Shown here piece after piece: positions 38,190 through 38,680 of a stretch of 64,000 bases of DNA. The DNA lies in IMG/VR virus record IMGVR_UViG_3300025162_000043, positions 14,055 through 78,054 of that record. One strand, given 5' to 3'. Within the stretch, counting starts at the first letter, position 1, and each line of letters begins with the position of its first letter. A program made the position numbers and the translations under genes. Under the pieces are notes generated by a model, which was not told where the DNA came from, did not search any database, and saw only the letters and a program-made list of their open reading frames with translations. The DNA comes from a virus.

Positions 38190-38680
38190 TGAAATAATTG
38201 CATACGTTCTCACGTGCATAAGTGCTTAAGCAACTACTTACATTCGCCGTTTTAATGAGAGTATGGAGAAAGTTAGCTATCCTTTTATCCATACTCTCTT
38301 TCACCGTTACATTAGACAAGAGGGTTTATTTAACCTCTGTTATATTCTCTTATTTATCAGGGCGAGGGCTTCCACTGAAAACCAGTCTAATTCAACGGGA
38401 TTTGATTCCCATTCTACTGAGATTCCTCTGTTACTTGTGACTGTGACTTAACTTGACTTGTGACCGCACTTGTGAAGGTCACAGTAGAATGTTATCCTTA
38501 CTGAATAGAATCAAAATTAGATGTTACGGGGGTTTGTGTTTACTGGACTCACCTTATCCCGTTTTTGTGGTAGTTGTCCTATTCCTACCCATTAACTAAC
38601 ATCCAAATTCAAAGATCAATCTGCAAAAACACCAACTTTCCGAGTCATTTTCAGTTGGTTGACTCATCAACTAGTCATCC
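38190..38680 (-). ncRNA. candidate large structured non-coding RNA
   Basis: no credible ORF; multiple nested helices and an H-type pseudoknot (see findings); strand inferred from the upstream gene. Confidence 0.5.

Follow-up and report, generated by a model that had tools for sequence, protein, structure and literature searches.

We analysed a window of 64,000 nt of viral DNA, bases 14055–78054 of the 78-kb IMG/VR virus record IMGVR_UViG_3300025162_000043, a record with inverted terminal repeats. A 490-base gap at 38190–38680 of this window is flanked by plus-strand genes ending at 38003 and by a minus-strand gene, encoding a 64-aa protein, that ends at 38682. A first-pass annotation had proposed that the gap holds a large structured non-coding RNA. 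The structured stretch is real, but the RNA strand has to be corrected to minus, and the complete unit covers 38172–38681. This unit very likely encodes a functional structured RNA, which we describe here together with the small gene whose transcript carries it.

On the minus strand, the layout comprises a promoter (38914–38883), the open reading frame (ORF) of the 64-aa protein (38876–38682) and the RNA (38681–38172), which makes up the 3′ three-quarters of an inferred transcript of ~700 nt. The promoter is of the sigma70 type, with a −35 element TTGACA (38910–38905), a 16-nt spacer and an extended −10 element (TGT)TAGGGT (38888–38883), and a terminator-like hairpin of the upstream gene (38962–38943, minus strand) lies immediately ahead of it. 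Since the −10 element is just 6 nt ahead of the ATG of the 64-aa gene, the mRNA, for which the start site is deduced, is probably leaderless. No promoter-like site is found between the ORF and the RNA. The unit closes at its 3′ end (38172–38250) with an intrinsic (Rho-independent) terminator, in which ACGGCGAAUG and CAUUCGUCGU form a 10-bp outer stem (10/10 paired) around an inner stem (38250–38182), followed by UUUUUCUUUGU on the minus strand; its long loop escapes a simple terminator scan. This anatomy, a putatively leaderless small ORF with a long folded tail, is unusual.

The 64-aa gene (38682–38876, minus strand) is a real gene with 11 homologues at 65–98% identity, and the protein alignment contains 26 invariant positions. 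AlphaFold predicts a six-strand all-beta meander with a predicted local distance difference test (pLDDT) score of 89. A Pfam match to Bflower_2 is sub-threshold (E 0.003), the PDB holds no match by sequence or by fold, and the ESM Atlas neighbours are small, mostly viral proteins and an RHS-repeat-like fold.

As the first-pass annotation stated, there is no credible ORF in the RNA: all six frames of 38172–38681 are closed by 9–26 stops each. All three stop types occur in every frame, so recoding of one stop codon opens none, and a recoded ORF is ruled out. The reading frame is not preserved among the homologues described below; a 1-nt indel between two of them (L016 and L017) falls within the most conserved block and breaks the frame of any conserved peptide in the core, which is also ruled out. 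A read-through or frameshift signal provided by a pseudoknot after the stop codon was rejected, as in-frame stops follow and the pseudoknot is absent from half of the homologues. Processive antitermination was rejected as well, as the window has no co-oriented genes downstream.

Homologous loci and the sense strand

Homologous loci were collected by scanning metagenome and genome contigs with the 64-aa protein alignment. Gene homologues were found on six metagenome contigs (L015–L020) and on one contig (L021) of a metagenome-assembled genome (MAG); L015 ends 36 nt past the gene, and L019 is nearly identical to L018. A homologous RNA lies downstream of the gene in all six loci that reach far enough (L016, L017, L018, L019, L020 and L021), and this linkage holds down to 56% protein identity. 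The homologous non-coding stretches measure 255–606 nt (338 nt in L018 and 321 nt in L021), compared with ~510 nt in the window, and align blockwise with the window minus strand. The loci have 38–52% GC and differing flanking genes. A like promoter (TTGACA, then TGnTAnnnT) is located upstream of the gene in L015–L018, L020 and L021, and a module of TCACCGA type, together with the terminator, follows the RNA in L016–L018 and L021. Judging from these loci, the small gene and the RNA travel as a unit among differing neighbours, and the homologue collection that the first-pass annotation had recommended has yielded six loci with a covarying RNA.

Two side observations concern individual contigs. 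The gene directly upstream of the 64-aa gene in L016 (459–893) and L015 (414–893) encodes an NlpC/P60- or CHAP-like peptidase (Pfam E 1e-7), and an unrelated 113-aa ORF occupies the same position in the window. The MAG to which L021 (CABMCB010000048.1, 4285 nt) is assigned is labelled 'uncultured archaeon'. Besides the phage gene and the RNA, this contig has the TCACCGAAT module and a promoter of bacterial type (TTGACA/TAnnnT), and it is probably a mis-binned phage contig.

Further members were not found in a phage collection, searched by blastn with the region and by tblastn with the 64-aa protein, or in IMG/VR, searched with neighbour proteins or with a profile of the 64-aa alignment. Candidates from two IMG/VR pattern scans (56 and 31 stretches) proved to be chance matches by inspection and by the covariance model R1 of the core (see below), and three stretches from a third scan were rejected because their whole records contain no R1 match. 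Five whole IMG/VR records that share a GP88-like gene with the window also lack an R1 match, with the window's own record serving as positive control, and the relatives of this gene in L009–L014 show no nucleotide similarity to the region.

Comparison with dinucleotide shuffles, a check that the first-pass annotation had itself named, confirmed that the stretch folds better than expected. The z-scores are −1.86 (plus) and −2.94 (minus) for 38190–38680, and −4.7 (minus) and −3.4 (plus) for the exact unit 38172–38681. The sense-strand z-scores of the six distinct RNAs are −4.7, −7.1, −4.2, −4.9, −2.0 and −4.2, and the sense strand scores below the antisense strand in five of the six.

We assign the sense strand of the RNA to the minus strand of the window because the promoter and the U-run are on this strand, because tetraloops read correctly on it alone, because a U-G pair is conserved in pseudoknot pk2 and because z is lower on the minus-equivalent strand in five of six RNAs. 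The U-run after the terminator hairpin is present, on the sense strand only, in the window and in L016, L017, L018 and L021. The tetraloops GCAA, GUAA and GAAA (GNRA type) as well as UUCG/UCCG cap inserted hairpins in L016, L017, L020 and L021, and these caps are correct only when read on the sense strand.

Core and peripheral domains

All homologous RNAs contain a core of ~100 nt (38302–38400, minus strand), which consists of a three-way junction and two pseudoknots and is described by the covariance model R1. In the window, helix Pa is formed by CCGUU/AACGG and AUUAGAC/GUCUAAU (5+7 bp, 38304–38317 with 38385–38398) and includes the TCTAATT/AATTAGA pairing that had been noticed at first pass. 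Pb is a hairpin with a loop that ends in CUCG. Pc is AAGAG/CUCUU in the window and RRGAG/CUCUY in the consensus, and occurs in the versions GAGAG/CUCUC, AAGAG/CUCUU, GACGG/CCGUC, GAUGG/CCAUC and GGGAG/CUCUC. Pseudoknot pk1 pairs GGUY ahead of Pb with RACC directly before the Pc 3′ strand (GGUU/AACC in the window), while pk2 connects the Pb loop (GUCUC) with a conserved GGGAC of the Pc loop (CCUC with GAGG in the window). The unpaired nucleotides AAUA, the CUCG loop end and an A-rich strand are invariant.

R1 scores 66 bits (E ~1e-14) in the window and 83–101 bits in the six other loci. It matches exactly seven loci among the 410 kb searched, gives a single match in the whole 78-kb record and finds none in eight other whole viral records. 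MAFFT misregistered Pa and Pb, which are of unequal length, and we therefore checked these helices sequence by sequence and realigned the core with R1; all core counts below come from the resulting model-made alignment A6 (seven rows, six distinct).

In this alignment, 91.9% of the cells of Pa, Pb, Pc and pk1 are paired, compared with 43–52% when the 3′ partners are slid by 1–3 columns, and 13 of 22 pairs are changed on both sides (2–4 in the slid controls); the observed score is reached by none of 500 shuffles. pk1, which is outside model R1, is 93% paired with two compensatory pairs (U-A to A-U in L017 and C-G to U-A in the window). For pk2, 94% of the cells are paired (9–63% in slid controls), again with two compensatory pairs (G-C to A-U in L017 and U-A to C-G in the window). 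Because 33 of 500 shuffles match the observed pk2 score, the support that the alignment gives to pk2 is moderate. Using its own alignment of four sequences, RNAalifold recovers Pc and the terminator hairpin, with double changes in 18 of 43 pairs; the terminator hairpin contributes 21 pairs, 10 of them changed on both sides. As aligned here, all helices covary among the homologues.

The first-pass annotation had also listed an AGAGG/CCTCT hairpin at 38320–38339. Both strands are in the sequence, but the comparison places AGAGG in the loop–loop pseudoknot pk2 and CCUCU in Pc and the adjoining strand of pk1, and the hairpin is probably non-native. In each of the seven sequences, an AGRGG-type strand can also pair locally with a CYCU-type strand, and this competition might represent a conformational switch.

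Several further elements surround the core. Near the 5′ end, an H-type pseudoknot (38632–38665, minus strand), reported as CCAACT/AGTTGG with GAGTCA/TGACTC at first pass, is indeed present, with S2 pairing GAGUCA (38665–38660) with UGACUC (38647–38642) and S1 pairing CCAACU (38658–38653) with AGUUGG (38637–38632). L016 has a counterpart with compensatory changes at the same place, where both sides differ at three pairs of S1 (CCGGGU/ACCCGG) and at one pair of S2 (AAGUC/GACUU). Since the pseudoknot is absent from L018, L020 and L021, it is optional. It is followed by a conserved single-stranded 21-mer that ends in UCUUUGAAU (38607–38627, minus strand). L016 has the identical 21 nt and L017 matches at 18 of 19 nt, while the flanking helices differ, and UCUUUGAA and UUU(U/C)GG are retained in L018 and L021. 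As no complement to the 21-mer was found within the RNA, it stands as a single strand and is possibly a processing or binding site.

Domain D1 (38516–38607, minus strand) has, in minimum free energy folds, a closing helix UUUGGAUGUUA/UAACAUCUAAU around GGUAG/CUACC and CGGG/CCCCG hairpins. A closing helix of 6–10 bp but of different sequence occupies the same place in L016, L017, L018 and L021. Domain D1b (38401–38515, minus strand) is specific to the window, with no counterpart in the homologues; it is closed by UUUGAUUC/GAAUCAAA, contains CAUUCUACUG/CAGUAGAAUG and is characterized by short repeats of the GUCACA type. Domain D3 is an 11-bp hairpin, GAGAGUAUGGA/UCCAUACUCUC (38257–38298, minus strand). 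Hairpins of 10–13 bp with differing sequences are found at the D3 position in L017 (GAGAGCACGG/CCGUGCUCUC), L018 (GAAGGGCGGGGAG/CUCCCCGCCCUCU), L016 and L021. The terminator hairpin likewise keeps its place while its sequence changes from homologue to homologue, and the homologues differ in how many peripheral domains they have and in how large these are. The remaining pairings seen at first pass are all there as well: GAGAGTATGGA/TCCATACTCTC at 38257–38298, TTTGATTC/GAATCAAA at 38401–38408 with 38508–38515, and CATTCTACTG/CAGTAGAATG, TGTGACC/GGTCACA and GGTAG/CTACC at the places given for them.

Source phage and surrounding DNA

The completeness of the 78-kb record is ~22% (CheckV estimate), which implies a very large phage. 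Near-identical DNA occurs in 11 lake and freshwater metagenome runs, all of DNA, from several studies. A GP88-like gene lies nearby (39500–40375, Pfam E 3e-33), and because its closest cultured relatives (36–45% identity) are found only in Synechococcus phages, the source is likely a large freshwater cyanophage. The GC content of the stretch (~37–40%) is similar to that of the remainder of the phage.

Within the RNA, the four metagenome runs that were compared with the window differ from it by a single substitution (38538 G>A), and they were otherwise uninformative. An apparent joint between 39271 and 38002 in these runs is a repeat artefact caused by a module copy at ~41923. Additionally, a metagenome contig from run X10 matches 38406–38447, and its next 251 nt differ from the window. 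The break at 38447 is inside the window-specific domain D1b, at the D1b short repeats; it could stem from the assembly or from a strain in which D1b is interrupted or different.

The promoter core GAA[AT]TTGACAA occurs in eight copies in the 78-kb record, seven on the minus strand (44420, 41874, 40379, 39266, 38914, 34560 and 34002) and one on the plus strand (31991), and in the copies shown a −10 element of the TGnTAnnnT type comes after the core. Several copies end only ~6 nt ahead of an ATG, and many small genes of the phage may be leaderless. The copy at 39266 overlaps the listed GTG start ('MKKEFDN...') of the 113-aa ORF (38934–39275, minus strand). The same peptide reappears ahead of the 64-aa gene as a 14-codon pseudo-ORF, and the true start of the 113-aa ORF is probably an ATG ~30 nt further downstream.

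On the other side, the RNA is bounded by a repeated intergenic module outside the unit (38004–38170), in which two copies of TCACCGAAT are followed by palindromes of the AAATACTGGCCAGTATTT type. The record has the core of these palindromes in ~18 exact copies and the ATTCGGTGA motif in ~19. Read on the minus strand, the module consists of a terminator tail, TCACCGAAT (often twice) and one to three AAATACTGGCCAGTATTT-type palindromes. Other copies are located at ~21579–21650, 22245–22340, 22741–22830, 23653–23755, 25003–25170, 26513–26640, 27078–27160, 28631–28710, 29688–29800, 31788, 32420, 35427 and 41923. The module looks like an operator set common to many small-gene cassettes; at its position, the related contigs carry TCACCGA repeats and GTACT...AGTAC palindromes. 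Beyond the module, a 161-aa ORF (37299–37784, plus strand) has weak replication-initiator PHROG matches (E ~1e-3). It also has winged-helix/helix-turn-helix Pfam matches below cut-offs and converges on the RNA unit.

Relation to known RNAs and possible roles

The Infernal/Rfam check suggested by the first-pass annotation left the novelty of the RNA intact. A search of the whole window with Rfam 15 (4227 families, including ROOL, GOLLD, HEARO, OLE, raiA, group I and II introns, RNase P, signal recognition particle (SRP) RNA and transfer-messenger RNA (tmRNA)) gave no match at gathering score. At E<=10, both strands of 37900–38800 give only weak microRNA, snoRNA, plastid untranslated region (UTR) and counter-transcribed RNA (ctRNA) matches, far under the cut-offs, and at E<=1 there is no match in the homologous loci L016, L017, L018, L020 and L021. 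At these three levels the RNA does not belong to ROOL, GOLLD, HEARO, OLE or raiA. ARAGORN finds no tRNA or tmRNA in the window, and together with Rfam, applied to the window and the homologous loci, it gives no indication of a tRNA, tmRNA, RNase P, SRP or 6S RNA, in agreement with the first-pass view that the element is none of tRNA, RNase P, SRP or intron. A group I or II intron is not indicated, as there is no Rfam match and there are no split exons, since the element sits between a complete 64-aa ORF and a terminator.

Other classes of known RNA were considered in the same way. Riboswitches and self-cleaving ribozymes have no Rfam match here; the RNA lies on the 3′ side of its gene, and the genes that come after it in the window are convergent, on the plus strand. 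A TnpB/IscB omega RNA does not agree with a region (38190–38680) that is unique in the 78-kb record and next to a gene for a 64-aa beta protein, and there is no HEARO or IS605-orfB Rfam match. For non-coding RNAs associated with retrons, diversity-generating retroelements or other reverse transcriptases, PF00078 is absent from the 78-kb record (~22% of the expected genome), with control genomes positive. We found no described counterpart in the literature, where the catalogue of PMC10690425 was covered by its description only. This catalogue (2023) lists ~10,000 viral structured-RNA candidates with motifs of 29–151 nt and required at least three IMG/VR regions, whereas our IMG/VR scans found no second member. 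Within the libraries searched, the claim of a new class holds. The proposal of a large phage RNA, possibly of a new class, is supported by the lack of an Rfam family, by conservation after the same gene and by helices with compensatory changes.

In kind, the RNA resembles GOLLD (RF01998) and ROOL (RF03087), two large, ornate RNAs that phages often carry. Like it, they run to several hundred nucleotides, have many domains and pseudoknots, and were found solely by comparative analysis of environmental sequence. Unlike them, it has no covariance-model match to either even at E<=10, is not beside tRNA genes (none in the window), forms the 3′ extension of a small ORF's transcript and has a conserved core of only ~100 nt. 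We regard it as a new family within a known kind, the large orphan structured phage RNAs.

RNAIII/hld of Staphylococcus and SgrS/SgrT each combine, in one transcript, a small ORF close to the 5′ end with a far longer non-coding part that is structured (RNAIII measures ~514 nt with a 26-aa ORF), and they act via short antisense seeds in simple hairpins. In our RNA, by contrast, it is a compact tertiary core that is conserved, no complementary target was found in the phage, and the sequence is unrelated to those of RNAIII/hld and SgrS/SgrT. The 3′ UTR-derived small RNAs of the CpxQ, SroC and DapZ type have promoter and terminator in common with the upstream coding sequence. Our RNA shares promoter and terminator with the upstream ORF in the same way, a correspondence to 3′ UTR-derived or dual-function RNAs that concerns anatomy only, and the conserved AU-rich single strand between ORF and RNA is a candidate RNase E site; however, our RNA is five to ten times their size, and its core contains two pseudoknots. 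The core itself is similar in size and style to SAM-I, glmS and twister, with junction helices, loop-to-strand pseudoknots and invariant unpaired nucleotides, but its helix strand order fits none of them, Rfam gives no match and the RNA comes after the gene, not before it.

The best overall explanation, to which we assign a probability of roughly 55%, is a new family of large structured RNAs that are stable and act in trans. The RNA would accumulate as a stable folded molecule, either whole or cut loose at the single-stranded UCUUUGAAU element, and its compact core would offer a specific protein-binding surface, with the variable arms serving as scaffold. The binding partner would most simply be the co-encoded 64-aa protein, or else a host factor. 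Because promoter and operator modules are common to both, the RNA would be made along with the small-gene cassettes, perhaps for host take-over.

Several points weigh against this explanation. Transcription of the RNA is deduced from DNA, and the findings do not favour action in trans over action in cis. The family comprises seven sequences, six of them distinct, which were all located via the neighbouring gene, so that the gene linkage is partly by construction. Also, few independent changes underlie the statistics, the () pairs were counted on an alignment made to fit the model, and one of the strand tests is weakly favourable, with nine G-U cells versus six A-C cells. Finally, the 64-aa protein is not basic (~+10/−10 charges) and is unlike any RNA-binding fold; as modelled, its features neither favour nor rule against RNA binding.

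A folded tail could instead act purely in cis, as a 3′ UTR that controls the small gene's own mRNA through protection from 3′ exonucleases, half-life or translation gating, and have no role elsewhere. One transcription unit with one terminator and the 6/6 gene linkage agree with this. The RNA also begins at the stop codon, and in L021 only 1 nt separates UAA from the D1 closing helix, so a terminating ribosome must open D1. On the other hand, a length of 255–606 nt and a doubly pseudoknotted, sequence-conserved core exceed what a stabiliser or terminator needs, the core is 120–400 nt from the ORF and conserved as strongly as the protein, and sibling cassettes with the same promoter and terminator modules have no such tail. 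We consider a purely cis-acting role rather unlikely.

Less probable still is a ligand-binding aptamer (sponge or sensor) or a ribozyme, for example one that frees the RNA from the mRNA by self-cleavage. The junction, the two pseudoknots and the invariant unpaired blocks of the core are like those of riboswitch aptamers and small ribozymes, and the competing AGRGG/CYCU-type pairing in all seven sequences would suit a switch. Nevertheless, no Rfam riboswitch or ribozyme matches, the position 3′ of the gene and the constitutive-looking terminator leave no expression platform, and the sequence names no ligand or cleavage site. As a long shot, the core could be a phage RNA pocket (a sponge or sensor, e.g. 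for a host immune signalling nucleotide) or a catalyst helped by the 64-aa protein; if true, this would be a new functional RNA class that a virus turns against its host.

It is very improbable that the element works at the DNA level, for example as an origin or a packaging or recombination site with inverted repeats acting as DNA hairpins or protein sites. The region adjoins the gene with weak replication-initiator matches as well as repeated, iteron-like palindromes, and compensatory changes would preserve DNA hairpins too, but the palindromes belong to the ~18-copy intergenic module and are not locus-specific. Pseudoknots, GNRA and UUCG loops and the promoter-to-terminator frame indicate RNA, and the neighbours of the homologues change while the RNA remains with the small gene. 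The idea that the stretch is a gene in decay, or an AT-rich spacer whose inverted repeats arose by chance, can practically be dismissed. The phage-like GC content and the plus-strand z of −1.86 for 38190–38680 would agree with it, but the z of −4.7 for the exact unit and the covariation counts speak against it, as does the conservation across loci of 38–52% GC, in which double changes preserve the helices and no reading frame is kept.

Large RNAs with complex tertiary folds are rare; OLE, GOLLD, ROOL, HEARO and raiA each opened their own research line, and several such RNAs are phage-borne. The family so far consists of six distinct environmental sequences only. Its small, doubly pseudoknotted core suits structure determination and ligand or protein screens, its promoter-to-terminator unit is clear, and the fixed protein neighbour gives an immediately testable hypothesis. 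Since the source phage is likely a cyanophage, the RNA may bear on the take-over of cyanobacteria by such phages.

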